From the NCBI GenBank assembly GCA_028713655.1, contig JAQTNW010000001.1:68465-132464 (forward strand): a stretch of 64,000 nt of DNA, in the 5' to 3' direction. Positions within the stretch are counted from its first letter, which is position 1; each line of letters begins with the position of its first letter. The notes under the pieces were generated by a model. The model was not told the origin of the DNA. It made no database searches and was given only the letters and a program-made list of their open reading frames with translations. The stretch is from Candidatus Methylacidiphilales bacterium. GTDB lineage: Bacteria; Verrucomicrobiota; Verrucomicrobiia; Methylacidiphilales; JAAUTS01. Positions 10,472 through 47,744 of the stretch are shown here, piece after piece. Both the position numbers and the translations under genes were made by a program.

Positions 10472-10575
10472 GTCTCGGTCCTTTCGTTATGACGCCATTT
10501 TCTAAGCTCATATAGGGCAGGCTACGATGCGGGGATGCGCCTGAAAATGGACAATCCGCCCAAAAAGATGGACTT

Positions 10576-12849: not shown

Positions 12850-13033
12850 TAACAACGCTCGTATGCGGCGTGGTATTTCGCAGTAAACCGAGAATTTCAT
12901 TTACCCTCTGTTTGCTCCTGTTAAAAAGTTTCCCGCCTTCGTCCGGCGAGACGGACGTTTTGCATTTGTATTAACGACATGTCGCGCGCGGGGAAAGCGT
13001 CGTCGTGCCGCCGCAGTCCAAAAATCTGGGGTT

Positions 13034-13168
13034 ATCTGCGGTTAAAAAAGGTATTTCTAGCGTCTTTGCGTTAAAAGGCCTTCACTTTGTGATCTTTGCG
13101 ATCTTCCTGTATAAAACGTGCGGCTTTCGGAGAGTTGGAGATGGAGTTTGAGCAAGACTAAGCGGCTC
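13034..13168. repeat. dispersed repeat family C, copy 2 (inverted relative to 7410-7520)
   Basis: The reverse complement of 13071-13168 aligns to 7410-7505. atctgcggttaaaaa (13034-13048) is the reverse complement of tttttaaccgcagat at 7502-7516. Confidence 0.8.
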
Positions 13169-13323
13169 AAACACGTTGCAGGCGATTTGTGTAAAAGCAT
13201 CTATTTTACGCTGTTTCCAAGCAGGTTAGGGGGTTTAGCTCAAATTCATTGAATCAGGCGCCCGGTATTTTCGTGTAATAAGTGAGGCCAATTTAAAACA
13301 GTGCCTCGGATTGTGAGGATAAA

Positions 13324-14097
13324 ATGAAGCAGCCCGAACACGAAGAAGACCCTCTCGACGTCCAATTGTTGGTTGTTATTACAGAAAATGGGATCACGAC
13401 CCTTCCCGAATTAATCGAAGCCATCACCCCGGGGATGCAGCCGAAAATCGCGCAGTTGATCCACGACTTGTGCGAGAGTTCCTGCGGCAATTTCAAATCC
13501 CCGGGGTATCCCGGCTGGTTTCATACGCTCAACCGCAACGTGCTCAGCCTCTTTATTTCCAAAAACCTTGATGGAAACAAAATTGAACATTTTCAGATTG
13601 GCTATGTGCTCGGGTTGATGGCGGCCCTATACCCAGGTTTGAGGACGGACGACCTGCTCGGCGCAAACAAAAAAATGGCGCCGGGTTTGTTAAAACCGTT
13701 TGATATCTTCAAGCAAATAACCGGAGTGCTGGACAATCATTATCGGCTGTCGGATTCCGTGGAAAAATCCGGAAAGTATTTTGAAGGCCGCGGGGCCGGG
13801 CTAAAAGCGGGCCTGCGATTTGAAAGGCCGCTTCACGACGGGCCCGCAACCTTTGCGCTGCAGGTTATGATCCTGATTTTATGGAGGAGGATCTCCAAAA
13901 TGTCGTCCATTTCGGAGCTGTACGAATTTCTTGCCGGCGCCCTGCCGCAAAATCTCGCGGGGTGTGAGGTTGGAAGGCTTGCGAAATTTTCCCGCCGCAA
14001 TGGGATCAAGCCGAGGCAAAGAGCGCCGCAAAACAGAAATTTGGGAGATCGTTTGTGGGCATGCCGGTCATTGGAACAGCCGTTCAAGTCCGAGTGA
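13324..14097 (+). CDS. hypothetical protein
   Basis: 257-aa ORF with coding-like composition and no recognisable motif. Confidence 0.45.
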   Translation: MKQPEHEEDPLDVQLLVVITENGITTLPELIEAITPGMQPKIAQLIHDLCESSCGNFKSPGYPGWFHTLNRNVLSLFISKNLDGNKIEHFQIGYVLGLMAALYPGLRTDDLLGANKKMAPGLLKPFDIFKQITGVLDNHYRLSDSVEKSGKYFEGRGAGLKAGLRFERPLHDGPATFALQVMILILWRRISKMSSISELYEFLAGALPQNLAGCEVGRLAKFSRRNGIKPRQRAPQNRNLGDRLWACRSLEQPFKSE

Positions 14098-22175: not shown

Positions 22176-24344
22176 ATGAGACTTAGATCATTTCGCGTAT
22201 GTGGGTTTCGCTGCATCAAGGATTCCGGATGGATCGAAGTTAGGAATTTGGTTGCCCTTGTTGGTCGAAACGAAAGCGGGAAAACTGCCCTCCTGCAATC
22301 CTTATTGCTATTGAATAAGGACACTAAAATTCAACCGGAAGACCTTACAGATGGGTTAGAGCCGGATCAATTTGAAGAAAATGAGTTTCCAAATGTAATT
22401 GATGCCAAATTTGTTTTTTCCGACCAAGAAAAGGATGAGATCAAAAAAGCATTTCCAGAATTTCCTGCGCTAGCAGAAATTAATATCTACAGGTCACATG
22501 ACGACGCAAAACCGCAATATGGACAGCTATCGCAAGAATTACCTGATGTTGTTTCTATAAACACGGAAACTGTTGCAGCAATAAAACCGCATATTGAAGC
22601 GGCTAAACAGCTTCTTGCTGCACCTACTGCAGATTTGGCTCTATCTACCTCAAAATTGCAAGGAACAGATAGCCAAAAACTGGATGCCTTAAAAAAGGGA
22701 TTGAAGAGTTTGTCTGAGTTACAAACAAAACCCAATTTAAAATTACAAGAAGATGTGACCTCCGGCCTGACATGGCTACTTTCACTGGAAGGACTTATTC
22801 CTGCAACCCTGACAATCATTCAAACTCTATCTGATGGATTAAATTCTCTACATAAGAAGGAAAGGGGTGAAGAAGCGTTCTTCAATTTCATCGAAGCCAA
22901 ATTTCACCCCAGTTTCGTTTACTTCTCCTCTTACAAAGCAATCCATGGGAATGTCAGGCTCTCAGATTACACCACAGATGTAGCTGATGGGACGACACTC
23001 AAATTGGATACAGGAGAATCATTAGATCGCAAAGAGACTGTCGATAACCTTTTTTACCTGGCCGATCTTGATCCCAAAAAATTGTCTGATGTAGCCCCAA
23101 GTCCTACGAAGCGAAGTAAATATTTAGGTGATTGCGCAAGAAATCTTACCAAAGAAATTCAGCGTGGATGGATTGGTGAAGGCGCAAAAATTGAATGCGA
23201 CCTTGACTACAGTGATGATATTTTAACAGTCAAAATTATCAATGTTAACGACGATGGAACTAGAAGCAACCAACAGCTTTTACAAAGACGTAGTGAGGGA
23301 TTTCGTTGGCAGTTTTCCTTTCAAGTCAACTTCAAAGCAGAAACAAAAAAATCTGCTTTAAAAGAAGCCATTATTCTTTTGGACGAGCCCGGTCTGCATT
23401 TGCACCCCGCCCAACAAGAAGGACTTCTCAAAATCATTCAAGAATTGGCGAATGACAACCAAATTATCTACACCACACATTCGCCGTTTATGATTTTTGA
23501 TTACACAGCAGGCAGCCTGCTGTTGGTTGAGATAGACCGGGCAACCAAGTTGAGTAAAGTTACCTCCGAATTTTGGAATGGGTCAACAGACGCCTTGCTT
23601 CCTGTGTTACATTCTTTGGGCGCAAAATTCGTTAGGGGATTGACTGAAAAGAGTGATTTTGCCCAATTATTGCCGCCAGTACTAGTGGTTGAAGGAACGA
23701 CAGACTACAAATATATCAAGGCCGTAAATTACCTGTTTAAATTGCAACAAGTGGATGGGACTGCGGATCGAAATGTTTTGGATCTAGATATCATTCCTGC
23801 AAACGGCTCTTCGGCAATACGTCCAACCGCGTTGTTTCACCAGAGGCTAGGTCATCGCGTGATTGCACTGTTTGATAAAGAGCCAGATGCCGAAAAGCAG
23901 GCTGAAGAGTTGAAGAAAGAAGGATTTCCAGCGGAAAATATTGTTTTTATACCGGTCGCCGACCACAAATCTGAGGCTGATATAGAAGATTTATTTCCCG
24001 AAGGAGATTATCTTAAGCATCTGAATGAGTTTTATAAAAACACGCTTCTACATGCGCGTTACCAAATTTTAGGAAAAGATGATCTAAAAAAAGTGCGTAA
24101 TTCGGATGTAAAACTTATACGAACTGTCTTAGCTGTTGAGGCTGCTTGGAAAGTCAAAGGCACACCTCAATGGGGAACGTTTTCAAAAGCGGATGTCTGT
24201 GACAAAATTTGCACAGATATTTTGCAAAACAAGTCTTTAACTGAAAATCCGTTGAAGGCCTTTAATGACCTATTCGGACATATCCGCAAGGCTTTAGGAC
24301 TATCTGTTTTTGAAATCACCTCACCCAAGGACAAGGCAAAATAA
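22176..24344 (+). CDS. ABC-type ATPase fused to a TOPRIM-like nuclease domain (OLD family / fused PARIS AriA-AriB-like)
   Basis: 722 aa. Walker A GRNESGKT, a ~280-aa helical insertion, signature-like RRSEGFRWQFSF, Walker B ILLDEPGLHLHP and TTHSP. C-terminal TOPRIM-like VLVVEGTTDYKY and ALFDKEPD. Confidence 0.7.
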   Translation: MRLRSFRVCGFRCIKDSGWIEVRNLVALVGRNESGKTALLQSLLLLNKDTKIQPEDLTDGLEPDQFEENEFPNVIDAKFVFSDQEKDEIKKAFPEFPALAEINIYRSHDDAKPQYGQLSQELPDVVSINTETVAAIKPHIEAAKQLLAAPTADLALSTSKLQGTDSQKLDALKKGLKSLSELQTKPNLKLQEDVTSGLTWLLSLEGLIPATLTIIQTLSDGLNSLHKKERGEEAFFNFIEAKFHPSFVYFSSYKAIHGNVRLSDYTTDVADGTTLKLDTGESLDRKETVDNLFYLADLDPKKLSDVAPSPTKRSKYLGDCARNLTKEIQRGWIGEGAKIECDLDYSDDILTVKIINVNDDGTRSNQQLLQRRSEGFRWQFSFQVNFKAETKKSALKEAIILLDEPGLHLHPAQQEGLLKIIQELANDNQIIYTTHSPFMIFDYTAGSLLLVEIDRATKLSKVTSEFWNGSTDALLPVLHSLGAKFVRGLTEKSDFAQLLPPVLVVEGTTDYKYIKAVNYLFKLQQVDGTADRNVLDLDIIPANGSSAIRPTALFHQRLGHRVIALFDKEPDAEKQAEELKKEGFPAENIVFIPVADHKSEADIEDLFPEGDYLKHLNEFYKNTLLHARYQILGKDDLKKVRNSDVKLIRTVLAVEAAWKVKGTPQWGTFSKADVCDKICTDILQNKSLTENPLKAFNDLFGHIRKALGLSVFEITSPKDKAK

Positions 24345-33091: not shown

Positions 33092-36000
33092 ATGTCTTCA
33101 AAGTTTTTTACAAACGCAGAAGGCAATACACTGCTCCAAAAAATCCAAGGGGTTTTTGAGCACAAAAAAGTCCACTTTCTGGATGTCCTTGTGGGTTTCC
33201 TTCATGCCTCGGGTTACTTCCGGGTTCGCCCCTTTATAGCCAAAGCGCAAAAGATACGCCTCCTTGTTGGCATTTCCGTTGACCACCTGATTGCAGAAGC
33301 AACCACGCAGGGACTTCAACTCACTGCCAGCGACGATCAAATTCGCGGGGAACTGCTCAAGGCACTGATTGAGGATGTTCAAAAAGCCGATTACAAACCA
33401 GAGATTGAACAGGGAATGGTTGGATTGCTTGAAGATATTTCAAGCGAAAAAGTCCAGCTTCGCGTTCACCCCAATAGAAATCTTCACGCTAAAATTTACA
33501 TTTTCCGGGAAGAGCACAAGCACGCACACGGCTATGGAGCAGTAATTACAGGCTCCAGCAATTTAACGGCTGCCGGCCTGGAAAAGAATTTTGAATTCAA
33601 CGTTGAGCTTCGTGATGACGAAGAAATCGAATTCGCGGCCAACACCTTTGAAAAACTTTGGGGTGAAGGCGTTCCCGTCACCTCTGCATTTGCCCAGGAA
33701 TTAAAGCAACAGACTTACCTCAACGACGCATTCACACCCTTTGATCTTTACGTGAAGTTTCTCTTGGAATATTTCGGATCAGCTATCGAATTTGACCCTG
33801 ATTCCATTCTGGATTTACCCAAGGGTTTCAAAAAGCTTTCTTATCAGGTGGATGCAGTCAACGACGGTTTCACCAAACTGCAACAGCACAATGGCTTTTT
33901 CTTGGCTGACGTGGTGGGGCTTGGAAAAACCATTATTGCCACCCTGATTGCCCGCAAATTTTATTACAGCAATGGCTTCCCATCCTATCAATCACATACG
34001 CTTATTGTGGTTCCTCCCGCCTTGGAAGAAGGGTGGCGACAGACGGTGGACAAATTCAATCTGAACAACGTTCATTTTGAAACGGTTGGCAGCCTTCACA
34101 AGATCACGAATGCCCGCAAGTATGATCTTATCTTAGTGGATGAAGCACATAAATTCCGTTCCGACACGGCGGATATGTATCGCGAACTCCAACGCATTTG
34201 TAAAACACCGACCCGGCAGGGTTTGGATAAAAAAGTCATTTTGATTTCGGCCACACCTCTCAACAATAGGCCGCAGGATATTGCCAATCTGGTTTACCTT
34301 TTTCAGGACAGCAAAGATTCCACTTTGGACGTGGCCAATTTGCAGCATTTCTTCGCTCCCTTAATCAAAGAATACGAACGTTTGAAGCGGGATGGAACTC
34401 CCAAAGAAGTGCAAGAAGGCGTCCGCAAAATTTACGAAAGCATCCGCGAAACGGTCATCGTCCCCTTGACTGTCAGACGCACCCGCAAAGACATTGAAGC
34501 ACATCCCATATACCGGGATGATATAAAACGACAGGGCATCAGCTTCCCTAAAGTCCGTCCTCCACACCGGATTTACTACCCCTTGGATGTCAAGTTGGAG
34601 GAATTATATGACCGGACATTTCAAGCCATCAGTGGAGTCAACGGCGGTTTGACCTATTACCGTTATCAAGCCATTGCCTACCTCAAGCCAGAAAAACGGG
34701 CGCGGTATCAGTCTGCTCTTTTAATCTCCCAACAACTGGCCCGCATCATGAAAACGATGCTAATCAAGCGGTTGGATTCCAGCTTCCATGCCTTCCGCTC
34801 CAGCTTAAAACGGTTCCAGGATGCCACGCAAGTTATGGTCAACATGTTTGACAAGGGTGCGGTTTACATTGCTCCTAATCTGCCCGTGAATGAATTTCTG
34901 TTGGAAGACAAGGAAGACGAACTTATCAAATTGATAGAAGAAGCCTCGTTGACCGACCCAACCATACAGGTTGTTCAACCCTCGGATTTTGAAGACGCTT
35001 TTCTCCCCGGTTTAAAAGCGGATTTGCAGCTCTTGAGTGATCTCTATGCCGAATGGGAAGCCGTTGATTCTGACCCCAAACTGGACGCCTTTTTACTGTG
35101 CCTGAAAGACGATTTGCGCCAAAAAACAATCAATCCCTCGGGCAAGTTGATCGTCTTCTCCGAATCCAAGGAAACGTCTGAATACCTCGCCAAGCAACTG
35201 GAAGAACGGGGCTTTGGCAAGCTGCTCAATGTTTCCAGTCATAACCGTAAAGAACGGCTGCCGCTCGTTAAAGCCAATTTTGACGCCAATCTATCTCTTG
35301 ACCAACAGGCCAATGACTATGACATCCTTATCTCCACCGAAGTTTTGGCTGAAGGCATCAATCTGCACAGGGCCAATGTCATCATTAATTATGACACCCC
35401 CTGGAACTCCACCCGGTTGATGCAACGCATTGGGCGGGTAAACCGTATTGGAACTACGGCAGATGCCATTCACATCTTTAACTTTTTCCCCACCGCCAAA
35501 GTGGAAGAAGACATTGAATTGGAGCGTAAAGCCAAACTCAAACTTCATGCCTTCCACGTTGCTTTGGGCGAAGATAGCCAGATTTATTCAGAAGAAGAGG
35601 CTCCGGCCACATTCGGACTGTTCGATAAACTGCTGGAAGAAGAACAAGATCGGCGCTTGGACTATCTTATGTGGCTGCGCGAATTCCGCGAAAAGAACCC
35701 CAACCGTTTCAAACAAGTCAAAAACCTTCCGCGCCGCGCCCGCACCGGGAGGCAGCACAAAGGCTTTGTGGGCTCCTCCTATGTTTACGTTCGTTCCCAG
35801 CGTCGGGATGGCTTTTATTTCGTTTCACCGGATGAAACGGTCCAAGAGGCCACCTTTCTGGCCATGGCGGATGCGCTCAAAGCTACCCCCGAAGAGGTTT
35901 CCCATCCCTTACCCCCGGAACATCACCTGCATGTCAGCTCATCGGTGGAACATTTCCACTCCACCTGGCAGCAACAAATGGCCTTGGATAAAAAGGTCGA

Positions 36001-36337
36001 AGTACAGCCGGGGCCTACAGAAAGTAATGCCCTGTATTTCCTCAGTGCTTTGTTGCGCTTCCCATTGAGCAGCCCTGTGGAACAGCAACAATTTGCAGCA
36101 GCTCAAACCGCAATTAAAGCGGGGCGATTCCAGAATCTGGCCCGTGACCTAAACAAATTGCGCAAAAGCAACGACAAAGCCCCGGTTGCCATGGCCTTGC
36201 TCATCGAAAAGGCTTACAAACTGTGCCAAGGGTTCCCCTTGTTGGAAGAGGTGGAAGTAACTCCATCTACTCCCTCCCACCCTGCGGCGGTAGCTCAACC
36301 CCCTGAAATCATTCTTTCTGAATCCTTTGTTGGTTAA
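33092..36337 (+). CDS. HKD (PLD-family) nuclease domain fused to an SNF2-family helicase
   Basis: 1081 aa. Single HKD motif NLHAKIYIF...VITGSSNLTAAGL. SNF2 motifs LADVVGLGKTIIA (I), LILVDEAHKFRS (II, DEAH) and ISATPLNN (III). C-terminal helicase motifs ILISTEVLAEGINL and TPWNSTRLMQRIGRVNRIG. Confidence 0.85.
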   Translation: MSSKFFTNAEGNTLLQKIQGVFEHKKVHFLDVLVGFLHASGYFRVRPFIAKAQKIRLLVGISVDHLIAEATTQGLQLTASDDQIRGELLKALIEDVQKADYKPEIEQGMVGLLEDISSEKVQLRVHPNRNLHAKIYIFREEHKHAHGYGAVITGSSNLTAAGLEKNFEFNVELRDDEEIEFAANTFEKLWGEGVPVTSAFAQELKQQTYLNDAFTPFDLYVKFLLEYFGSAIEFDPDSILDLPKGFKKLSYQVDAVNDGFTKLQQHNGFFLADVVGLGKTIIATLIARKFYYSNGFPSYQSHTLIVVPPALEEGWRQTVDKFNLNNVHFETVGSLHKITNARKYDLILVDEAHKFRSDTADMYRELQRICKTPTRQGLDKKVILISATPLNNRPQDIANLVYLFQDSKDSTLDVANLQHFFAPLIKEYERLKRDGTPKEVQEGVRKIYESIRETVIVPLTVRRTRKDIEAHPIYRDDIKRQGISFPKVRPPHRIYYPLDVKLEELYDRTFQAISGVNGGLTYYRYQAIAYLKPEKRARYQSALLISQQLARIMKTMLIKRLDSSFHAFRSSLKRFQDATQVMVNMFDKGAVYIAPNLPVNEFLLEDKEDELIKLIEEASLTDPTIQVVQPSDFEDAFLPGLKADLQLLSDLYAEWEAVDSDPKLDAFLLCLKDDLRQKTINPSGKLIVFSESKETSEYLAKQLEERGFGKLLNVSSHNRKERLPLVKANFDANLSLDQQANDYDILISTEVLAEGINLHRANVIINYDTPWNSTRLMQRIGRVNRIGTTADAIHIFNFFPTAKVEEDIELERKAKLKLHAFHVALGEDSQIYSEEEAPATFGLFDKLLEEEQDRRLDYLMWLREFREKNPNRFKQVKNLPRRARTGRQHKGFVGSSYVYVRSQRRDGFYFVSPDETVQEATFLAMADALKATPEEVSHPLPPEHHLHVSSSVEHFHSTWQQQMALDKKVEVQPGPTESNALYFLSALLRFPLSSPVEQQQFAAAQTAIKAGRFQNLARDLNKLRKSNDKAPVAMALLIEKAYKLCQGFPLLEEVEVTPSTPSHPAAVAQPPEIILSESFVG

Positions 36338-36342
36338 GTATC

Positions 36343-39300
36343 ATGACACGCACTGAACTACGCGAAAAACTCCGCCAAAAATTTTCCTCGGAAACGTGGA
36401 AGGATATTCTGCCCCGGCTATTTCCCGGCACGGCCTTCTTTCAAGCTCCGCAGGAAGTCATTGCAGATGGAGAAGTGGCTAAAAGTATCCGTCAAACGGG
36501 ATTCCTCCCGCTGGCCGATGACAGTCGCTTGGGATTATTTGAAGTGGAGATAGCCAGCGAACACACGGTCATTGCCCGCAATCGCGTTGGCCTTCGTGCA
36601 CTTGTAGCCAAGCTGGTAGATCAGGCCGCCATTCACGGGGCCTTGGTGCTGTTTTATCGCCCCAGCAGCCAGGAATACCGACTTTCCTTCATCACAAAGC
36701 AATCAAGTTTTACCGTAGACGGGAAACTTCAGACAACCGAGACGGCCCCCAAGCGTTACACCTATGTCCTTGGCCCAGAGGAGCCCTGTACAACGGCCAC
36801 CCAACGCTTGGGTGAATTGCTGGAACGGGATGCCCGTCCCACTTTGGATTCGGTCACCCAAGCTTTCTCGGTCGCACGTGTAACCCGTGAATTTTACAAA
36901 GCCATTGAACAACATCATGCCGATCTAAAAGAGCACTTGGAAAAGATCAAGCGCATCAAAGGGTTTGAAGAACCGCGTATTCGCGCTCAGTTTGCCACCC
37001 GTCTTCTGGGACGATTAGTATTCCTCCGATTTTTGGCCAAGAAAGGCATTGTCCCCATTGCCCTGTTCGATCCAGAGAATGAACGGGACGTCACTTTTTA
37101 TCAGAAAACTCTTGGGGCTCTTTTCTTTCAGACCTTAAACAAGCCAAAGGAAGACCGTCCGGCCAACTTGCCACCGGAGTTTTCCAAGGTTCCTTATCTC
37201 AATGGCGGTTTGTTTGAACCGCATGACCCCCATGACGGTTGGCCCAATCCTTCGTTTTATATTCCCCCGGAGTGGTTCAAGAATCTGTTTGAAACCTTCC
37301 AAGCATACAACTTCACCGTCGATGAAAACTCGCTTCAGGATGTCGAAATCGCCGTTGACCCGGAAATGTTGGGGCAAATCTTTGAAAATTTGCTTGCCAC
37401 AGTCAACACTGAGACAGGCCAGAGCGCCCGTGATGCACACGGCACGTTTTATACTCCGCGTGAAGTAGTAGATTATCTTTGTCGCCAAGGTGTACGCCTC
37501 AGGCTTCAGAACCTGTTCCCTGAAGTAAAAGAAGACCAGTGGGAAGCATTGTTTGCGCAATCTTCTGGAACCGCCTTGGCGGAGTTCTCCGTGGACAAAG
37601 GAAGACTGCTTGACTCCCTGGACAAACTAAAAATCTTTGACCCTGCGGTTGGCTCCGGGGCTTTCCCCATAGGTATTCTGCACGTTCTGGCGGAACTTTA
37701 CGAAAAACTGGATGACCACTTTGACGCCTACAAAATTAAACTGAGGATCATTAAAAATAACCTCTACGGAGCGGACATTGAACCAATGGCAATTGAATTG
37801 GCAAAGCTCCGCTGCTGGCTGTCGCTTATGGTTGAATCCGACAGAATAAAAGTCCTGCCCTTGCCCAATTTGGATCTCAAATTTTTCTGCCTAAATACTT
37901 TATTTGATCCGCCGCCTTTGGATCGGGAAGATCTATTCTTACGGGATGGATTGATTGAACTGTACGATTTAGAACAGGATTTCTTCGGCTGCAACGCCAA
38001 GGAAAAGCCAGCCCGCCGTCTGGCCATTGGAAAGAAACTCGATGAGCTTTATCAAGGTGTCCGCAGCCAGTATGTCCGCACCGCTTTAAAAAAGGGAACC
38101 GAGTCCAAAAAACGAAAGAGCGCCTTGGACGCCGCCAGCCTTTATCCCGAAAACAAAACCTTGTTCCAAGACTGGCTTAATCAGGGCACTCACGCCCTGC
38201 CGTTCTTCCCGAAGGAATTGCTCTGTCCGGATGTCTTCCCGCTCCAATCCGTCACGGGCGGCACGGTTCTGAACAACCTACTTTTGGTCAACCAGATTAA
38301 GGGCCAGCAGGAGCTGGTGACCAAAAAACAACCGCCCCGCAGTGGGTTTGATGTGGTTGTGGCCAATCCTCCATATGTGAGGCAGGAAGACATCAAAGAG
38401 CTCAAGCCTCGGCTAGAACACTACGAATGCTTCAAGGGTACCGCAGATTTGTATGTCTATTTTTACGAGCGTTCTGTGCAGTTGTTGACTAGAGGTGGAT
38501 CGCTGGCCTTCATCACATCGAATAAATATTTCCGCGCGGGTTATGGCGATAAATTGCGTGGTTTTCTGGCGGAAAGGCATACCCTGCATCAGGTCATTGA
38601 TTTCGGGGATGCTCCGGTCTTCACCGCCGTTGCCTATCCCAGCATCGTGCTGCTTACGAAGGAACAGCCCGATTCCGGGGAGGTGAAAGCCATGACGTGG
38701 GAACCGGGGTCACCAGTGGAGGATTTTGCCCGCATCTTTTCGGCCCAAAGCTTCTTTATTCAACAAAATCTATTCACGGCAGAAAGCTGGAGGATTGAGC
38801 GGCCCGACGTGCTAGCCCTGCTGAAACGGCTAAAAGAATACGGTACGCCTCTGGGCGAATATATCAATCGGCGGCTCTATCGCGGCATTTTAACCGGTAT
38901 GAATGATGCATTCGTAGTGGATAGGGAAACAAGAGATGCCTTGATTGCAAAGCACCCCTCCTCAGAAGTGGTGCTGAAACCGTTTTTGCGAGGACGAGAT
39001 GTGAAACGTTGGCGCACAGAATTTGACGCTCAGTTTCTGATTAAAATCGAATCATCTGAAAATGCCACACACCCTTGGACTGGGGAGAAAGATTCGGAAG
39101 CTTGGAAGACTTTTGGTGAAATCTATCCAGCGATTAAGTGCTTTATGGAGGGCCTGGAAGACATAAAGCTTGAAGAGCCTGATAAACGCGGCTGCAAAAA
39201 TAAGTTTGAACAACTAAAAAGTCGTGACGATCAAGGGAAATATTTCTGGGAGTTGCGTTCGTGCGCCTACTGGAAAGAGTTCGAAAATCCTAAAATTATC

Positions 39301-39825
39301 ATTCCGGCAATCGAAAAAGATTGCGCATATGCTCCAGAACTTAACGGTTTTTATTCAAACGACAAAACCTCAATTTGCGTCACATCTGAAATCGACTTTT
39401 TACTAGCTCAACTAAATTCATCGGTTCTGTTTTGGCTTATCCGTAAAACGGCAGCCACAAAACAAGGCGGTTTTTATGAATTTAAGCCAATGTATGTGGA
39501 GGCTCTGCCTATTGTATCAGCCACAGAAATTCAAAAGAGATTGGTGGAACGCATTGTTTCAATTTTAATTTCGGGTGGAACAACTCCACTACTTGAATCC
39601 ATCCTAAACGCCTTGATTTACGAACTCTATTTTCCAGAGGAATTACACATTGCAAATCTTCGCTTCTTTGATCTCGTAGACAAAACTGGCTTACCAGAAG
39701 CCGGTGATGCCAAGGCCATTACTGCTTTCACACAAGTCATGACCGACCCAAACCACGTTCTACGCCGCGCCCTATTTACTTTGGGTTCATTGCCAATTGT
39801 CCGTCTGATTGAATCGAAACAATGA
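36343..39825 (+). CDS. large gamma-class N6-adenine DNA methyltransferase (Eco57I/PglX-like)
   Basis: 1160 aa. SAM motif I IFDPAVGSGAFPIG, NNLYGADIEPMAIELAKLR, catalytic motif IV VVANPPYVRQEDI, and a long C-terminal region (putative target recognition). Starts 5 nt after the helicase stop. Confidence 0.85.
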   Translation: MTRTELREKLRQKFSSETWKDILPRLFPGTAFFQAPQEVIADGEVAKSIRQTGFLPLADDSRLGLFEVEIASEHTVIARNRVGLRALVAKLVDQAAIHGALVLFYRPSSQEYRLSFITKQSSFTVDGKLQTTETAPKRYTYVLGPEEPCTTATQRLGELLERDARPTLDSVTQAFSVARVTREFYKAIEQHHADLKEHLEKIKRIKGFEEPRIRAQFATRLLGRLVFLRFLAKKGIVPIALFDPENERDVTFYQKTLGALFFQTLNKPKEDRPANLPPEFSKVPYLNGGLFEPHDPHDGWPNPSFYIPPEWFKNLFETFQAYNFTVDENSLQDVEIAVDPEMLGQIFENLLATVNTETGQSARDAHGTFYTPREVVDYLCRQGVRLRLQNLFPEVKEDQWEALFAQSSGTALAEFSVDKGRLLDSLDKLKIFDPAVGSGAFPIGILHVLAELYEKLDDHFDAYKIKLRIIKNNLYGADIEPMAIELAKLRCWLSLMVESDRIKVLPLPNLDLKFFCLNTLFDPPPLDREDLFLRDGLIELYDLEQDFFGCNAKEKPARRLAIGKKLDELYQGVRSQYVRTALKKGTESKKRKSALDAASLYPENKTLFQDWLNQGTHALPFFPKELLCPDVFPLQSVTGGTVLNNLLLVNQIKGQQELVTKKQPPRSGFDVVVANPPYVRQEDIKELKPRLEHYECFKGTADLYVYFYERSVQLLTRGGSLAFITSNKYFRAGYGDKLRGFLAERHTLHQVIDFGDAPVFTAVAYPSIVLLTKEQPDSGEVKAMTWEPGSPVEDFARIFSAQSFFIQQNLFTAESWRIERPDVLALLKRLKEYGTPLGEYINRRLYRGILTGMNDAFVVDRETRDALIAKHPSSEVVLKPFLRGRDVKRWRTEFDAQFLIKIESSENATHPWTGEKDSEAWKTFGEIYPAIKCFMEGLEDIKLEEPDKRGCKNKFEQLKSRDDQGKYFWELRSCAYWKEFENPKIIIPAIEKDCAYAPELNGFYSNDKTSICVTSEIDFLLAQLNSSVLFWLIRKTAATKQGGFYEFKPMYVEALPIVSATEIQKRLVERIVSILISGGTTPLLESILNALIYELYFPEELHIANLRFFDLVDKTGLPEAGDAKAITAFTQVMTDPNHVLRRALFTLGSLPIVRLIESKQ

Positions 39826-41489
39826 AAATCCAGAAGATCATTCTGAACAACTTTCGTGGGTTTCCCGGTCCACTGGATTACGAATTTAAACTAAATGGAA
39901 ATAATCTGCTTTTATTCGGAGAAAATGGGAGCGGTAAATCCAGTCTTTATCGTGCTCTGGTTGAGTTGTTTCAGCCGGATAATCTACTTACAAAATCAGG
40001 TGCTAAAAAACCATTTTCTTCGTTTCGCAATGCCTTTGCCAGAGACAATAACAACCAACTGCTGGCCACGGGAAAAGTCAGAATTGAATTTGATCGACCT
40101 GAACTGACTGCGGAATGGTCAGAGACTCAAGAGCGTTCACCGCACATGCAGGATGCTCCAACAGAGTTAAATCTGACAGCAAGAAGTATTGGCTGCCTCG
40201 ACTACCGAGCCATGCTTGAAACTAACTTCGTTCATCGCCATGGCAGGGTTAATTTGTTCTCGCTAATCGTGGAGCATCTCCTTGCTCACATACCTATTTC
40301 AAGCCACAGGAAAAGTGATGAAACTTTGGGAATTGCTTGGAAGCGTGTGCTTGCAGTCAAGCCTTCCAGTCATCGCGGAAGCCGTTGGAGAAACCGAGTT
40401 AAAAATGCGGAGGCCTTTTGGAACAACACTTTGCCTCCATTGTTAGGTTTATTGACTGATGAAGTTAACAAGCTTTTAGGTGACTTCAAAGCCACCGGAC
40501 TAACCGTCAAACTCACTCCAGGCACATTAAAATACAGCGAAACCGCCAGAAAATTTTACGGGATGGATGTGTGGCTAGATGCAACTCTGAACACTGAAAC
40601 TCCGGAGGAACCACAACACTTCTTGAATGAAGCTCGTCTTTCAGCCCTTGCTTTATCCTTGTTTTTGGCAGGGTACAAAATGAGCATCCATGAGCCTAGT
40701 CCCGGAGAAATAGAAAGTGCGCGAGTACTTGTTCTGGATGATGTATTAATTGGATTAGATATGGATAATCGAGTTCCTGTTTTAGACATCTTGCGCAATT
40801 TATTCGCTACCTGGCAGATATTACTGTTAACACATGATCGGCCTTGGTTTGAGATCGCTAAACAGCGATTACGTCCAGGAGGAAACTGGCAGGCATTTGA
40901 GGCCTATTCTCGACGTGTAGGAGACCATGAACAACCCATAGTTTTGGACGACTCCGATTTACTTCTTAGGGCGCTTGAATATTTTGAAGTTGGCCATGTT
41001 AAGTCTGCAGCAGTTTATGCTAGAGAACAGTTTGAAGTCACACTTAAATGGGCCTGTGAAACTTTCGCCATTCCTGTTCGCTTCCGTACATCTTTTCGTG
41101 ATGTAAAAGCAAACGATTTGTGGACAGCTTTGAAGGACGCGCAAAGAAAGATTCCTTTGCCTGCCGAGTATTGCACTATTGCCGCTGGCAAAACCATTAG
41201 ACTGCCAGTTAAATCCCAGAGTGTTCGGATCATTCCTGAAAAATTGGTTGAAAGAGTTGGATACGCACTGAGTTGGGTGTTAAATCCCCTTAGCCATTCC
41301 GAGCCTGTTAGCCGTTATAGTCGAGAGATTGAAGATGCCATTTTCGCAGTGGACGAACTTGATCGAACAGTGCGTCAATCCGCGCTTGATGCTCACAACG
41401 AACTCATTCTACAACGCAGATTTCTTGTTGGTTTGTTAAAAAGAAAGCCAGTATCATCTGAAGTCGAAAACCCAGTAGACTTGGCTTGA
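39822..41489 (+). CDS. SMC/ABC-like (RecF/RecN-type) ATPase with a ~200-aa unknown C-terminal helical domain
   Basis: 555 aa. N-terminus IILNNFRGF, Walker A GENGSGKSS, signature-like NEARLSALALSLFLA, Walker B VLVLDDVLIGLD, and LLLTHD. ATGA start/stop overlap with the methyltransferase gene. Confidence 0.75.
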   Translation: MKIQKIILNNFRGFPGPLDYEFKLNGNNLLLFGENGSGKSSLYRALVELFQPDNLLTKSGAKKPFSSFRNAFARDNNNQLLATGKVRIEFDRPELTAEWSETQERSPHMQDAPTELNLTARSIGCLDYRAMLETNFVHRHGRVNLFSLIVEHLLAHIPISSHRKSDETLGIAWKRVLAVKPSSHRGSRWRNRVKNAEAFWNNTLPPLLGLLTDEVNKLLGDFKATGLTVKLTPGTLKYSETARKFYGMDVWLDATLNTETPEEPQHFLNEARLSALALSLFLAGYKMSIHEPSPGEIESARVLVLDDVLIGLDMDNRVPVLDILRNLFATWQILLLTHDRPWFEIAKQRLRPGGNWQAFEAYSRRVGDHEQPIVLDDSDLLLRALEYFEVGHVKSAAVYAREQFEVTLKWACETFAIPVRFRTSFRDVKANDLWTALKDAQRKIPLPAEYCTIAAGKTIRLPVKSQSVRIIPEKLVERVGYALSWVLNPLSHSEPVSRYSREIEDAIFAVDELDRTVRQSALDAHNELILQRRFLVGLLKRKPVSSEVENPVDLA

Positions 41490-41523
41490 GCAATAGAACG
41501 CAATCAGTCAAAATAGACCCTTA

Positions 41524-41997
41524 ATGCCAGTTCAGTTTACAGACAGTGAAATCCAAGCGCTTCTTCTTGAGGGAAAGCCGCTGCCTGCTGACTACGCACT
41601 CAGGGTTGTGACCAAAGCCAAGCGCGGACATCGAGAGCGGGAATTGGCCGTAGAGGGTGAGGCAGGCAGTGATTTTGTCCTAAAGTTGCGCCAATCCTCC
41701 ATTAACCCACTGGATTTTTCCGTGATTTTGTGTGTTGTTCCCAAAGGGAAAAATGAGGAATTTCGCCTAAGACGGCATAACGGAAAAAGTCACGAACACA
41801 CGAATAAATTGGAGCGGGTCAAGATGTATGATTACCACATACACATGGCCACAGAACGTTATCAGCGAACAGGTTGGGAAGAGGACTCTTACGCTGAACC
41901 TACGAACCGATATCAGGACTTTCAAGGAGCCTTGCAGTCTATGCTGCAAGATGCCAACTTTATCCTGCCAGCTAATGCTCAGATTGAGCTCATTTGA
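41524..41997 (+). CDS. hypothetical protein (157 aa, His-rich core)
   Basis: ORF with segment FRLRRHNGKSHEHTNKLERVKMYDYHIHMATERYQ. No family recognised. Lies 34 nt after the ATPase gene. Confidence 0.55.
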   Translation: MPVQFTDSEIQALLLEGKPLPADYALRVVTKAKRGHRERELAVEGEAGSDFVLKLRQSSINPLDFSVILCVVPKGKNEEFRLRRHNGKSHEHTNKLERVKMYDYHIHMATERYQRTGWEEDSYAEPTNRYQDFQGALQSMLQDANFILPANAQIELI

Positions 41998-42007
41998 TTA
42001 AACTGCG

Positions 42008-42784
42008 ATGACAACAGACACAATCATACAAGACTTTAAACGCAAAGTATGCGAGGAAGTGCGCGTAGAACCGGAGGGCATGAATCGCTACCGGGTTTTT
42101 ACCCCCTTCATGTTCCAAGACGGTGATCATCTGGCTGTGGTTTTGCGCCATGAAGATGGCAAGTGGATTCTTGCCGATGAAGGCCATACTTACATGCATT
42201 TGACCTACGAGATTGACGAAGCATCCCTTCAAAAAGGAACGCGTCAGCAAATTATTAGCAATGCCCTGGATGCTTTCCAAGTAGAAGATAAGGACGGAGA
42301 ACTCCTAATGCGGATTGAGAAAGATCGCTACGGTGATGCTCTGTTTAGTTTTGTCCAGGCATTGATCAAAATATCTGATGTTACCTACCTTTCACGGGAA
42401 CGAGTACGGTCAACTTTCATGGAGGATTTTGAAGGCTTTATGACGCAGACAATTCCGGCCAGCCGAAGAGCTTTCAACTGGCACGATCCTCAAAATGACT
42501 CTGAAGGTAAATATCTGGTCGATTGTAAACTTAATGGTATGGAAAAACCGATTTACATATTTGCATTGCCAAATGACGACAAGGTAAGGGATTCAACTAT
42601 TTCATTGCTTAACTTTGAGCGGTGGGGACACAAGTTCCGCTCGCTGGCCATTTTTGAAGAGCAGGAGTCAATCAACCGCAAGGTTTTGTCCCGATTTAGT
42701 GATGTTTGCGAAAAACAATATTCCAGCCTTGGAGCTAACAAAGAGCGCATCTCTAAATTCTTGGGTGAAGCCCTCGCTGCATGA
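42008..42784 (+). CDS. DUF1828/DUF1829-like two-domain hypothetical protein
   Basis: 258 aa. N-terminal pattern (RYRVFTPFMFQDGDHLAVVL..EDGKWILADEGHT) recalls DUF1828 and the C-terminal half recalls DUF1829. This rests on memory only and needs an HMM check. Confidence 0.5.
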   Translation: MTTDTIIQDFKRKVCEEVRVEPEGMNRYRVFTPFMFQDGDHLAVVLRHEDGKWILADEGHTYMHLTYEIDEASLQKGTRQQIISNALDAFQVEDKDGELLMRIEKDRYGDALFSFVQALIKISDVTYLSRERVRSTFMEDFEGFMTQTIPASRRAFNWHDPQNDSEGKYLVDCKLNGMEKPIYIFALPNDDKVRDSTISLLNFERWGHKFRSLAIFEEQESINRKVLSRFSDVCEKQYSSLGANKERISKFLGEALAA

Positions 42785-42817
42785 TTGCTTTTGCAGCAAA
42801 GCCTGAACTAAGAAAGT

Positions 42818-43852
42818 ATGGCATTAATAACAAATAAAAACGGGCAATTTTTCCGCTCTGTTGTTTGGGAAAGTGAGAAGGATTTTGAAGGTCACATTGG
42901 CCAATTGGCGGACCGTCTTTTTGGTGAAACGTCGATTTATATTTCCATCAAACGGAAAGTCAGTAAGGGCGATATTAGCTGCATCCCGGATGCCTACGTT
43001 CTGGACTTGGCTGACCCCATTTCACCAAAACTTTACGTAATAGAAATCGAAATCCATTCACACGATTTGTATAAACACATTACTGAGCAACTCATCCGAT
43101 TCGCAGTCAGTTTTTCAAAAGACCAGTTGCCAGTACGCAGATTTTTAGGAGTTCACGTTTTCAATGACTCGGCTTTCCGAAAGAAATTGTTATGCGCTCA
43201 GAAGCAATCCAAAGCAGAAAACTTGGATGCTTACCTCGACCTGGCCGTCCTTAATCAGCCCTTCAACGGCCTTGTTGTCATCGACAACAGGACGGAGGAC
43301 TTGGACAACGTTTGTAAAGTATTCGCGAAACCGATTAGCGTTCTTGAGGTGCAGGCCTTCAAAAGCGATAAGGGCGAAATGCTTTATGAAATTGAAACCC
43401 TATACGGGGAAGAAGAGGACATTAATTTTGCCGCATCAGGTTCAAAGGGCACAGTAAACAAAAACTCCAAAAAAGCTGAGTTACATCGGCAACGACGTTT
43501 GACCTGTGACACCCTGGTTGTGCCTGCGCGGCCAGAAGGCTTTAAAGACACTTTTTTAGGCAGAAATCGTTGGTGGGCGGTTCGTATTAGTCCCGGTATG
43601 CTGGATCGCATCAAATATCTAGCGGCCTATCAAGTGCGCCCCATTAGTGCAGTCACACATATTGCGGAAGTGCAGCAAATCCGCCCATACGGAAACGAGG
43701 GTAAATATGAACTTGTGTTTTCCGGCCCAGCTAAAAAGATCAAACAAATCAGGCTAAAGAAATCAACTAAAGCACCCTACGGCCCCGTTTATGTTCGTAG
43801 GACCGACCTGCTCAAGGCTCGTTCCTTTGAAGATGCGCTACGTGCCCATTAA
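42818..43852 (+). CDS. hypothetical protein with an N-terminal restriction-endonuclease-like (PD-(D/E)xK-like) region and a conserved-looking C-terminal domain
   Basis: 344 aa. WESEKDFE ... IPDAYVLDL ... LYVIEIEIHSH resembles an E/D...ExK nuclease core, but Glu occupies the usual Lys position. C-terminal RWWAVRISPGMLDRIKYLAAYQVRPISAVTHIAEVQQIRPY..GKYELVF is of unknown fold. Confidence 0.5.
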   Translation: MALITNKNGQFFRSVVWESEKDFEGHIGQLADRLFGETSIYISIKRKVSKGDISCIPDAYVLDLADPISPKLYVIEIEIHSHDLYKHITEQLIRFAVSFSKDQLPVRRFLGVHVFNDSAFRKKLLCAQKQSKAENLDAYLDLAVLNQPFNGLVVIDNRTEDLDNVCKVFAKPISVLEVQAFKSDKGEMLYEIETLYGEEEDINFAASGSKGTVNKNSKKAELHRQRRLTCDTLVVPARPEGFKDTFLGRNRWWAVRISPGMLDRIKYLAAYQVRPISAVTHIAEVQQIRPYGNEGKYELVFSGPAKKIKQIRLKKSTKAPYGPVYVRRTDLLKARSFEDALRAH

Positions 43853-43854
43853 GG

Positions 43855-45120
43855 TCAGAGGCTTGGCCCGGAGATGTCTCTGGTTTTGGCTACGGGACGT
43901 TTGACTGTGATATCTAAGGTTAGTTCTCCAACTGCGAGCTCAAATCTTCCAATCTTTCGCACAAGATGCTCACAACAGATGTCAACTGCTGCACTGAGGC
44001 CGCCAAGGCCGCTTGCTCCTGCTGCTGCAACTGCTTGCGCTCGGAACAGGCCTGCAAGGCTGCGGACAAGAGTTTGAACTGCTCGGCCAAACCAGTTACT
44101 TGTCCTTGATGCGAAGCTTCCAGACTCTCCAAGGATTGTTGAAAATGGGTTAGTATTTCGCTCGGTTTCATAAGTCGGTTTCTGTTGTTGGGTTGGTAAA
44201 AAAGTCGGTGGACTCTGCGGAGGAGTTATGGAAATTTCAGCGGAAGTTTTAGGTAGGTCTTTTTGATGCCTTAGTTGCCGTTTTTTTTCAGCTCGGATTG
44301 CCATTTCATGACGAGCTGACTGGCGGATTGCCCGCCGTTCTTTCTCAACTTTGAGCCGTTCCATTGCCTCCTCTAATTCCTGCCTTTTGGTAATAGAGGG
44401 CTGTGTATTTTGATTACATATTTCGGTGCAAAAATCAGCTCTGTAATATGCTCCACGAAGGCCCGTGAACTTTTCGTCAGAGTGTTTTTTTATTTTTAAA
44501 TATTCAGCCGGAAGTTTGCCCTTTTTACTGCGCTTAATTTCATAGCCTTGGGCTTCCAAATAGAGCACAACATCATCCCGTTTGGTAATCGTTCCGGCGG
44601 CAATTTCATGCTGAATAAGTGCGTCAATTTCACTGATAAAATCCTTACTGGCTTTTGCAATCCGTAACGGAATGGATGTCATTTTTTTGCGGCTTGGATC
44701 GTCGGGCCGGGTGTAACCTTCCCGCAAATTTATGGTGTCTCTCAGTGCGTTCATTAAACGCCGGTCACGTGCGTCCAGATAAATTGTCAATTGCCTTCCT
44801 GATAATAGATTTATTTGGGGCATCAAAAAATGAAGCTCTGTCCGGCCTTTGTCGGTATGCCTAACCCAAAGCTTGTTTATCGCATTGCTAGGAAGACCAG
44901 AAGAAATTGCCTCTTCAAATTCTTCAATATGCTGGGTGACTTTTTCAGGCGTTATCGCCTCATTGAATGATAAACACCCCGAGCAAAAACGTTGTGAAAA
45001 ATCCAAAGTCGAGATCAGTTCTTCAGTTATAACTGGATCACCACGAAGCACCATCGCCGTAGGATTTCTGACGAGGTAAGCCACATTTGCACGCTCGCCA
45101 CCAAAAAAACTGATTACCAT
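43855..45120 (-). CDS. relaxase/mobilization nuclease domain protein (MobA/VirD2-type)
   Basis: 421 aa. The N-terminal ~200 aa carries the histidine-triad-like WVRHTDKGRTELHFLMP and is followed by a Q/A-rich tail. Preceded by a MobC-like gene. Confidence 0.7.
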   Translation of the reverse strand: MVISFFGGERANVAYLVRNPTAMVLRGDPVITEELISTLDFSQRFCSGCLSFNEAITPEKVTQHIEEFEEAISSGLPSNAINKLWVRHTDKGRTELHFLMPQINLLSGRQLTIYLDARDRRLMNALRDTINLREGYTRPDDPSRKKMTSIPLRIAKASKDFISEIDALIQHEIAAGTITKRDDVVLYLEAQGYEIKRSKKGKLPAEYLKIKKHSDEKFTGLRGAYYRADFCTEICNQNTQPSITKRQELEEAMERLKVEKERRAIRQSARHEMAIRAEKKRQLRHQKDLPKTSAEISITPPQSPPTFLPTQQQKPTYETERNTNPFSTILGESGSFASRTSNWFGRAVQTLVRSLAGLFRAQAVAAAGASGLGGLSAAVDICCEHLVRKIGRFELAVGELTLDITVKRPVAKTRDISGPSL

Positions 45121-47667: not shown

Positions 47668-47744
47668 TGGTTGCGGGGGCAGGATTTGAACCTGCGGCCT
47701 TCAGGTTATGAGCCTGACGAGCTACCTGGCTGCTCCACCCCGCG
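47668..47744 (-). tRNA. tRNA-Met (anticodon CAT), initiator-like, with encoded CCA
   Basis: Cloverleaf: CGCGGGG TG GAGC AGCCAGGTA GCTC G TCAGG CTCATAA CCTGA AGGCC GCAGG TTCAAAT CCTGC CCCCGCA A CCA. The C1:A72 mismatch is characteristic of bacterial initiator tRNA, and the sequence is very close to the E. coli tRNA-fMet layout. Confidence 0.9.
47671..47717. repeat. attR-like 47-bp repeat inside tRNA-Met
   Basis: Partner of 20445-20491. Covers the tRNA from the anticodon arm to position 73. Confidence 0.85.

Follow-up and report, generated by a model that had tools for sequence, protein, structure and literature searches.

The subject of this study is an array of six genes in a 64,000-nucleotide stretch of contig JAQTNW010000001.1 from a Candidatus Methylacidiphilales bacterium, and in particular the last three genes of that array. 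We refer to the whole stretch as the window and count positions from its first nucleotide. In the open reading frame (ORF) listing of the window, six ORFs on the plus strand (genes 1–6) span 33092–43852. Gene 1 (33092–36337) encodes a PLD (HKD) nuclease joined to an SNF2 helicase, and gene 2 (36343–39825) an Eco57I/type IIG-like N6-adenine methyltransferase that includes a specificity domain of the TaqI_C family, both assigned from Pfam and PADLOC; gene 3 (39822–41489), assigned from Pfam, encodes an SMC/ABC-type ATPase and is the third gene of what we call the core. These are followed by gene 4 (41524–41997), encoding a DUF6978 protein of 157 residues, gene 5 (42008–42784), encoding a DUF1828 protein of 258 residues, and gene 6 (42818–43852), encoding a two-domain protein of 344 residues with a predicted nuclease and a PUA-like reader. 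The intergenic gaps are 34 nt between genes 3 and 4, 10 nt between genes 4 and 5 and 33 nt between genes 5 and 6. A first-pass annotation of this DNA had listed three ORFs of these lengths behind the ATPase gene, with gaps of 10–34 nt, and all three were found on the plus strand. Genes 4, 5 and 6 are real genes rather than chance ORFs, because each has many conserved homologues.

Our preferred explanation, to which we assign a probability of roughly 0.6 as a joint figure that includes the proposed roles, is that the operon consists of a three-gene restriction–modification-like core and two independent cargo modules at its 3' end. Genes 4 and 5 are the first and second genes of an embedded cassette, and gene 6 is the other module. 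The last three genes had been proposed to be an accessory addition to a methylase–helicase core. Their place as cargo at the distal end of the operon agrees with this proposal, but they make up two modules and not a single trio: genes 4 and 5 occur without a homologue of gene 6 or of the ATPase in all 80 genome loci that were compared, and gene 6 occurs without genes 4 and 5 in all 80 metagenome loci. The genome loci (numbered, like all loci here, with the prefix L) were fetched after a scan with a gene 4 profile of one genome per species, which matched 208 genomes. The metagenome loci were fetched after a scan with a gene 6 profile, which gave at least 514 relatives. The core was sampled on seven contigs with homologues of gene 3 (L169–L175), out of at least 1,382 loci of the ATPase family.

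The core triad

The domain content of the core was taken from profile searches. The gene 1 protein matches PLDc_2, SNF2-rel_dom and Helicase_C in Pfam, and its best PADLOC model is 'HKD+Snf2' (C3a139, E = 1e-49). The gene 2 protein matches Eco57I (E = 2e-36), N6_Mtase and TaqI_C in Pfam and REase_MTase_IIG in PADLOC (E = 8e-113), and the gene 3 protein matches SMC_N, AAA_15 and AAA_23. The order SNF2 helicase, Eco57I-like methylase, gene 3-type ATPase is kept in all seven sampled loci, and six of the helicases (all but that of L173) have a recorded PLD domain. Five loci have the methylase called as one gene, and in these the start of the ATPase gene overlaps the methylase stop by 1–4 nt, as it also does in the window (39822/39825); the two genes share one base in L174 and are separated by a 20-nt gap in L169.

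What follows the ATPase is variable. The slot is occupied by a gene 6 homologue in L169 and L170, an SF1 helicase/RNase H protein in L171, a DUF3800 protein in L172, a transposase in L173, small genes without a known family in L174 and housekeeping genes in L175, and in two of the seven loci the triad ends at the ATPase. No homologue of gene 3 was detected in the 80 loci of genes 4 and 5 or in the 80 metagenome loci of gene 6. The ATPase therefore belongs to the PLD–SNF2/methylase core and not to genes 4–6. A second suggestion of the first-pass annotation, that genes 3–6 are a separate ATPase-plus-effector system, fails because the triad is complete without genes 4–6: the ATPase follows the helicase and methylase in seven of seven loci, two of which stop there. 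The triad is a recurrent system, and the cargo carried behind its ATPase gene varies.

The closest relative of the window operon is L169 (2744–12525), with identities of 83% for gene 1, 65% for gene 2, 48% for gene 3 and 35% for gene 6. This fall in identity along the operon suggests mosaic exchange of the 3' genes. Genes 4 and 5 are missing from L169, where the gene 6 homologue lies directly after the ATPase gene, so that the pair in the window sits as an insertion between genes 3 and 6. A LEM-3-type GIY-YIG protein (12553–13365) is encoded behind the gene 6 homologue of L169, followed by RepB/ParB and serine-recombinase genes; with these neighbours, the L169 copy of gene 6 sits on a mobile element.

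PUA-like readers are described as accessories of helicase–methylase–ATPase systems and of type I systems (Bell et al., 2020, PMC7641849; PMC12839542). The window operon resembles the predicted COG1743–DUF499–SNF2–nuclease–EVE operons and the Hma system (Payne et al., 2021) in combining a helicase–nuclease, an N6-methylase and an ATPase and in ending with a gene for a PUA-like reader, and those operons also readily host embedded defence cassettes. The first difference lies in the ATPase, which is of the SMC/ABC type in the window rather than DUF499/HmaC. The second is the methylase, which is Eco57I/type IIG-like rather than DUF1156/HmaB. The third is that the reader in the window is fused to its own predicted nuclease. 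Genes 1–3 were also considered as an Hma system proper. The gene 1 protein matches HmaA only partially (E = 4e-29) and has 'HKD+Snf2' as its best model, and neither HmaB nor HmaC is among the best 25 of the 79 and 92 PADLOC families matched by the gene 2 and gene 3 proteins, respectively. The arrangement of the core is analogous to Hma, but the core is not a member of it.

The DUF6978–DUF1828 pair

Judged from gene order and sequence, genes 4 and 5 are a tightly coupled, self-contained two-gene cassette and a candidate anti-phage pair. Of the 72 loci that could be analysed, which come from phyla across Bacteria and Archaea, 71 have the DUF1828 gene directly 3' of the DUF6978 gene, and the gap between the two in relatives of the window pair is mostly −4 to +3 nt. 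The one remaining locus (L065) carries an in-frame DUF6978–DUF1828 fusion. This 431-residue ORF (9986–11281) has its DUF6978 part at residues 6–162 and its DUF1828 part at residues 174–430, the two being joined by 11 linker residues, and may be either a genuine fusion or the product of a frame error in the metagenome-assembled genome.

The pair is present in the genomes of at least 208 species, with identities of 52–78% between members from distant phyla and from both domains; such values imply that it is often transferred. Its recurrent neighbours are HmaA, HmaB and HmaC; BrxC and PglXI; the type I proteins HsdR, HsdM and HsdS; Hachiman-like helicases; and genes like genes 1 and 2 of the window. 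Such defence genes lie near the pair in at least 27 of the 62 loci with enough flanking sequence. In BREX type 3-like, Hma, type I restriction–modification and PLD–SNF2/methyltransferase operons the pair lies nested among genes of its own strand; the BREX type 3-like order, for example, is BrxC-(pair)-...-PglXI-SNF2-PglZ, and in L043 the pair follows PLD–SNF2 and methylase genes with no ATPase gene. A protein of about 600 residues with SLFN_AlbA_2 and HATPase_c_4 domains was also seen near the pair at varied positions (L004–L007, L025, L033, L053, L081 and L083); it directly follows the pair in L004–L007 and L083, loci which also encode BrxC and PglXI.

The pair also occurs outside defence operons. 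The closest relative of the window pair (L008; 78% and 83% identity) is flanked by genes on the opposite strand and stands alone. In three Chloroflexota/Anaerolineae genomes the pair lies in the hrcA–grpE–dnaK heat-shock region, on the same strand and directly after grpE, either between grpE and dnaK (L018 and L028) or with dnaK as the next gene but one (L077). The cassette can therefore lodge in non-defence operons. Among viruses, the pair is present on five IMG/VR contigs and in the temperate Pseudomonas phages 5371, 5399 and phita81A. The plasmid collection gave no homologue of gene 4. In phages 5371 and 5399, the two that were inspected, cI is followed by a small ORF and then by the pair, and all of these genes share the strand of cI. 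In phage lambda, rexAB sits just after cI, which is a classic place for lysogen-protecting genes.

Properties of the gene 4 and gene 5 proteins

The match of the gene 4 protein to Pfam DUF6978 (PF22398) is borderline yet full-length: its score of 29.6 bits is exactly the curated cut-off of 29.6, it covers positions 1–130 of the 133 positions of the profile, and the precomputed annotation of the protein also gives PF22398. The protein matches phrog_27326 with E = 1e-24 and has at least 655 homologues at cluster level, with 54–64% identity. In an alignment of 32 homologues, 30 columns are invariant. These include a His/acidic cluster formed by H36, E38, D64, H90, H92, N94, H105, H107, E120 and D121. 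The His/Arg-rich segment that had been pointed out from the sequence (FRLRRHNGKSHEHTNKLERVKMYDYHIH; residues 80–107, positions 41761–41844) contributes F80, R81, R84, N86, G87, S89, H90, H92, N94, H105 and H107 to the invariant set. An AlphaFold2 (AF2) model of the protein (predicted local distance difference test score, pLDDT, 88) is mainly antiparallel beta with a few helices, and places this segment on beta strands 80–86, 92–94, 99–101 and 105–108. A Foldseek search of the PDB with the model gave no significant fold match (best E = 0.74), and its sole BFVD match is an uncharacterized phage protein.

The cluster had been described as assignable to neither HNH nor HEPN, and this is borne out by the mostly beta model and by the absence of a His-Me match in Foldseek. 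An HNH/His-Me finger can be rejected since the short helix of the model (111–115) carries no His, the PDB matches (none below E = 0.7) include no His-Me nuclease and no Pfam HNH family is matched. HEPN is excluded by the fold: the R84-x5-H90 spacing is present, but the model is mostly beta, residues 80–94 lie on strands and no HEPN family is matched in Pfam or PADLOC. An H-x-H on a strand also looks suggestive, and a HIT protein was considered as well, but Foldseek gives no HIT, cupin or other enzyme fold. A phage homologue of the protein carries HCHIH. In addition, the PADLOC DrmMII model PDLC02655 weakly matches residues 45–123 (E = 0.0035), a match that contamination of the model or a fused relative might explain.

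The gene 5 protein had been labelled DUF1828/1829. The DUF1828 part of this label stands (residues 32–122; E = 4e-25; 88.4 bits, the cut-off being 22), but DUF1829 was not detected at E ≤ 0.1 and turned up in a literature search only in DS-6B/HipAD, a different protein. Further matches are to PADLOC PDC-M24B (E = 2e-21, residues 3–147) and phrog_5059 (E = 2e-31). Homologues were found at 82 loci, with a mean column identity of 72% in an alignment of 60 of them, and gene 5 is more conserved than gene 4. Sequence and profile searches of the PDB with the proteins of genes 4, 5 and 6 gave nothing significant, and a literature search for DUF6978, DUF1828 and PDC-M24 found no functional study.

The match to PDC-M24B connects the pair to a published prediction. 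PDC-M24 is a phage-defence candidate in PADLOC, a cassette written FAM_00129>>FAM_00065, which was proposed by 'guilt-by-embedding' in BREX, DISARM and type I restriction–modification systems and is a prediction only (Payne et al., 2024, bioRxiv 10.1101/2024.01.29.577857). Like the window pair, it is a two-gene cassette A>>B embedded in defence systems, with DUF1828 as B. It differs in that the match between the gene 5 protein and the best PDC-M24B model is confined to the N-terminal half of the model, and in that neither the gene 4 protein nor two close homologues match PDC-M24A at E ≤ 0.1. The link to PDC-M24A is transitive and comes from the phage pair. The phage 5371 pair matches PDC-M24A (E = 1e-8) and PDC-M24B (E = 1e-13), and its proteins are 38% identical to that of gene 4 (E = 1e-21) and 26% identical to that of gene 5 (E = 3e-27). 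From the indirect A match and the partial B match, the window pair appears, by sequence relationship, to be a divergent branch of candidate PDC-M24.

Domains, relatives and contexts of gene 6

The gene 6 protein has no family match in Pfam, NCBIfam, PADLOC or PHROG. A word-indexed search found 45 clusters of homologues, and an exhaustive search found 1919 clusters at 50% identity. The AF2 model (pLDDT 88) consists of two domains joined by a disordered linker, and both domains had been sensed in the first-pass annotation, whose quoted peptides IPDAY, VIEIEIH, RWWAVRISPG and AVTHIAEVQQIRPY..GKYELVF are all present in the protein.

The N-terminal domain (residues 1–195; 42818–43402) is PD-(D/E)xK-like according to its conserved columns and the AF2 model, in which it has the alpha-beta-beta-beta-alpha-beta order of PD-(D/E)xK enzymes. 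Residues E24, K45, P57-D58, E76-x-E78, H82-D83, H87 and Q91 are conserved in at least 90% of sequences, and Pfam has no match for the domain. The earlier description of a nuclease-like protein in which Glu stands where Lys is expected is supported by D58 and E76-x-E78, with marginal statistical support. The active site of the PD-(D/E)xK enzyme BamHI carries D94, E111 and E113, with Glu in the Lys position. The D...E-x-E formed by D58, E76 and E78 resembles it at the motif level only, in having an acidic residue for Lys; sequence similarity to BamHI is not detectable and structural similarity is not significant. In three relatives (P0333, P0358 and P0425), the N-terminal domain is fused to TPR repeats, and D58 and ExE are lost.

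The C-terminal domain (residues ~230–344; 43505–43852) is, in its predicted structure, a PUA-like beta-barrel of the ASCH/EVE/YTH-like kind and a putative modified-base or nucleic-acid reader. Foldseek matches it to Zymomonas ZmASCH (5guq) with E = 5e-4 and probability 1.0, and seven ZmASCH chains are matched at E ≤ 1e-3 with the same probability; further matches are to the EVE structures 2gbs and 1zce, the ASCH-like 2kku, YTHDC1 and ASC1. The small ligand- or nucleic-acid-binding barrel that had been expected here thus takes shape as a PUA-like fold of about 110 residues. The Pfam ASCH, EVE and YTH profiles match none of 43 members of the gene 6 family at E ≤ 1. Because the fold is matched without a profile match, we regard the domain as a separate, unannotated family within the PUA-like fold class. 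It is not confined to proteins built like that of gene 6. It is also fused to GIY-YIG (PDC-S14, E = 2e-55) or to canonical D...ExK HSDR_N_2-like domains, or stands alone; in P0429 it is fused to a Ser/Thr kinase with TPR repeats, and in P0383 it lies behind an N-terminal region that has a FIGDGF motif and was matched to no family. In the plasmid collection, the matches are to the C-terminal domain only.

Gene 6 is separate from genes 4 and 5 and often accompanies restriction systems, this triad included. A homologue directly follows the triad ATPase gene in two of the seven sampled loci (L169 and L170; profile E = 1e-97, 35–36% identity), and in L156 the order is methylase, PLD–SNF2, gene 6. 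Elsewhere, homologues follow HsdR (L101 and L153), HsdS (L158 and L162) or a type ISP methylase (L164), precede a McrB-like AAA_5 protein (L136) or an SF1 helicase–DUF559 protein (L133), or adjoin type IIG restriction–modification genes. A solitary homologue in L001 lies among sugar-metabolism genes without a methylase. In the 80 metagenome loci, a gene 2-like methylase lies within four genes of gene 6 in eight, and no homologue of gene 3, 4 or 5 was found.

Fusions of PUA-class readers and nucleases, such as the EVE–HNH enzyme VcaM4I and SRA- or PUA-PD-(D/E)xK proteins, are presented in published work as modification-dependent (type IV) restriction endonucleases (Lutz et al., 2019, PMC6765204; PMC7897488), and standalone EVE or ASCH genes accompany type I restriction–modification systems (Bell et al., 2020, PMC7641849). 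Gene 6 resembles the PUA/nuclease type IV enzymes in having a nuclease domain and a PUA-like reader, in the shuffling of the reader among nuclease types and in being a single gene that is sometimes solitary. It differs from them in belonging to no EVE, ASCH, YTH or SRA profile family, and in its non-canonical D...ExE nuclease of marginal statistical support.

Proposed roles and alternative explanations

Both modules fit published concepts, the pair that of embedded candidate systems and gene 6 that of PUA–nuclease fusions. From the linkage, domain folds and conserved residues described above, we infer a defence function, complex formation, catalytic roles and a substrate as follows. The proteins of genes 4 and 5 would form a complex that acts as a second, autonomous anti-phage layer; a joint action is expected because of their tight coupling, the one fusion and their joint conservation. 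Within the complex, the DUF6978 protein would be a metal-dependent catalytic effector and the DUF1828 protein its partner, as a sensor or regulator. Gene 6 is most likely a type IV-like, modification-dependent back-up nuclease. Its reader-plus-nuclease architecture and the solitary copy without a methylase (L001) speak for this indirectly, and the shuffling of a reader among nucleases is the hallmark of such enzymes (PMC6765204; PMC7897488). Its PUA-like reader would attach to invading DNA at a modified base or at an unusual nucleic-acid feature and would direct the PD-(D/E)xK-like domain (D58, E76-x-E78) to cleave the bound DNA. It could then serve as a back-up against phages whose modified DNA escapes the methylation-based core.

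Several points weigh against this explanation. For the pair, about half of the loci have no recognized defence neighbours in an annotation that covered recurrent neighbours only, and the 55–72% conservation of genes 4 and 5 is unusual for phage-sensing proteins. The gene 4 protein matches no enzyme in sequence or structure; the invariant His/acidic cluster, from which a catalytic effector was proposed, could be a structural metal site. In the PDB, the C-terminal half of the gene 5 protein has only a weak Csx1–Crn2 match (E = 0.016), too weak for use, and PDC-M24 has the status of a prediction with no proposed mechanism. For gene 6, the nuclease assignment is not statistically secure: Glu replaces the canonical Lys, the Foldseek matches to EcoRV and R.BspD6I are weak (E = 0.3–0.7), and hhalign brings E76xE78 into register with the ExK of HSDR_N_2-like domains at a P of only 0.03. 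The reader lacks the profile matches mentioned above, and its best structural match, ZmASCH, is described as an RNase and not as a DNA reader. The position after the triad was seen in two of seven loci, and an ATPase homologue in 0 of 80 gene 6 metagenome loci. Moreover, a modification-dependent nuclease beside an active adenine methylase must ignore that methylase's own mark.

Among the alternatives, the one that fares best makes gene 6 a functional subunit of the helicase–methylase–ATPase system, in which the PUA-like domain would read host N6-methyladenine or its absence and license or recruit cleavage. It draws on the homologues found directly after the triad (L169 and L170) and after methyltransferase and PLD/SNF2 genes (L156), and on the eight of 80 gene 6 loci with a nearby gene 2-like methylase. 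The same role has been proposed for EVE in COG1743–DUF499–SNF2–EVE (Bell et al., 2020, PMC7641849), and systems related to type-2 BREX contain DUF3780 fused to reader modules (ASCH/PUA and RAMA) (PMC7641849; PMC12839542). We nevertheless consider it unlikely, as the triad occurs without gene 6 in five of the seven sampled loci, and the partners of gene 6 differ in mechanism (type I, type ISP and McrB-like), while solitary copies lie among housekeeping genes. In addition, gene 1 is 83% identical to its L169 counterpart and gene 6 only 35%, which means that gene 6 has been exchanged independently of the core.

For genes 4 and 5, an autonomous layer has to be weighed against a guard or back-up of methylation-based defence, as PrrC is with EcoprrI and PARIS with Ocr. 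The pair would then be inactive while its BREX, Hma, type I or PLD–SNF2 neighbour is intact, and would mount an abortive response once a phage anti-restriction protein disables that neighbour. The same-strand nesting of the pair in four families of methylase–helicase systems points in this direction. So do the documented PrrC fail-safe embedded in type I restriction–modification systems (Payne et al., 2024, bioRxiv 10.1101/2024.01.29.577857) and the auxiliary or back-up effectors discussed for BREX (PMC12839542). Yet the pair is found without any such system in L008, in the grpE–dnaK region and after cI in phage genomes, and therefore does not depend on one specific host system; nor do the proteins of genes 4 and 5 resemble any known sensor of DNA mimics. 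A guard of this kind is accordingly rather improbable.

A selfish nature of the cassette, either as a toxin–antitoxin-like addiction unit or as a self-mobilizing element with little or no role in phage defence, seems similarly doubtful to us. The pair is indeed a translationally coupled two-gene unit, it keeps 52–78% identity over distant phyla and both domains, and it has inserted into unrelated operons, including the hrcA–grpE–dnaK region. Against this, direct or inverted repeats flanking the pair in 68 loci equal the shuffled expectation, the proteins match no transposase, recombinase or known toxin–antitoxin family, and both show much stronger conservation than antitoxins usually do. In temperate phages the pair lies behind cI, which by analogy with lambda rexAB is the classic site for lysogen protection.

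A bolder account of both modules together is, in our estimate, also rather improbable. It would make the pair a new two-component immune module, with a DUF6978 enzyme of unseen fold and a multi-histidine metal centre that monitors methylation-based defences and fires when anti-restriction proteins disable BREX, Hma, type I or PLD–SNF2 systems. The gene 6 C-terminal domain would be a new, widespread PUA-like reader family (~1,900 clusters) that directs unrelated nucleases, and even a kinase, to modified nucleic acid. Weakest of all is an action of gene 6 on RNA, as an ASCH-type ribonuclease or an RNA-modification reader in an abortive-infection response, which we judge very unlikely: the title of a reference in PMC7641849 presents ZmASCH, to which the structural match is best, as an RNase with specificity for single-stranded RNA, and PUA, ASCH and YTH domains commonly bind RNA (PMC7641849), but the gene 6 reader is repeatedly fused to DNA-endonuclease-type domains (GIY-YIG and HSDR_N_2-like PD-(D/E)xK) and embedded in DNA restriction operons.

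On our preferred explanation of a core with two cargo modules, the apparent six-gene operon is a worked example of defence genes embedded in defence operons, its two modules being independently mobile. The DUF6978/DUF1828 pair is a tractable target, as it is widespread, including in phages, and the PDB contains no structural relative of one of its subunits. Gene 6 is a second such target; it stands for a predicted nuclease–reader family without annotation, and the reader of this family has also combined with GIY-YIG, canonical PD-(D/E)xK and kinase partners. The interest of the locus is increased by the size of the unannotated reader family and by the gene 4 protein, which is extremely conserved and has a fold without a match. 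Should either module prove to work as proposed, the gain would be a novel defence mechanism, or a new nuclease with specificity for modified bases that might serve as a reagent.

Surroundings of the operon

A terminator-like hairpin followed by a T run was found on the plus strand at 43868–43883, 16 nt past the gene 6 stop, by a consensus scan. It is a possible but weak indication of the operon end, because terminator-like sites in the region do not exceed the shuffled expectation. The scan found no internal promoters and, with terminator counts at chance level, says little about operon structure. Only 3 nt past the gene 6 stop, on the opposite strand, lies a relaxase-like ORF (43855–45120, minus strand; Pfam Relaxase, E = 0.003, below the cut-off). 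A tRNA-Met gene (47668–47744, minus strand) is located 3.8 kb further on, and no att-like repeat of it was found. The operon lies within a stretch of low G+C content at ~22–48 kb of the window, with a G+C fraction of 0.42–0.49 compared with 0.53–0.60 outside. The same stretch contains a gene on the plus strand (22176–24344) for a 722-residue AAA_15/AAA_21/DUF2813 ATPase of the OLD/Gabija type, which may be another defence gene.

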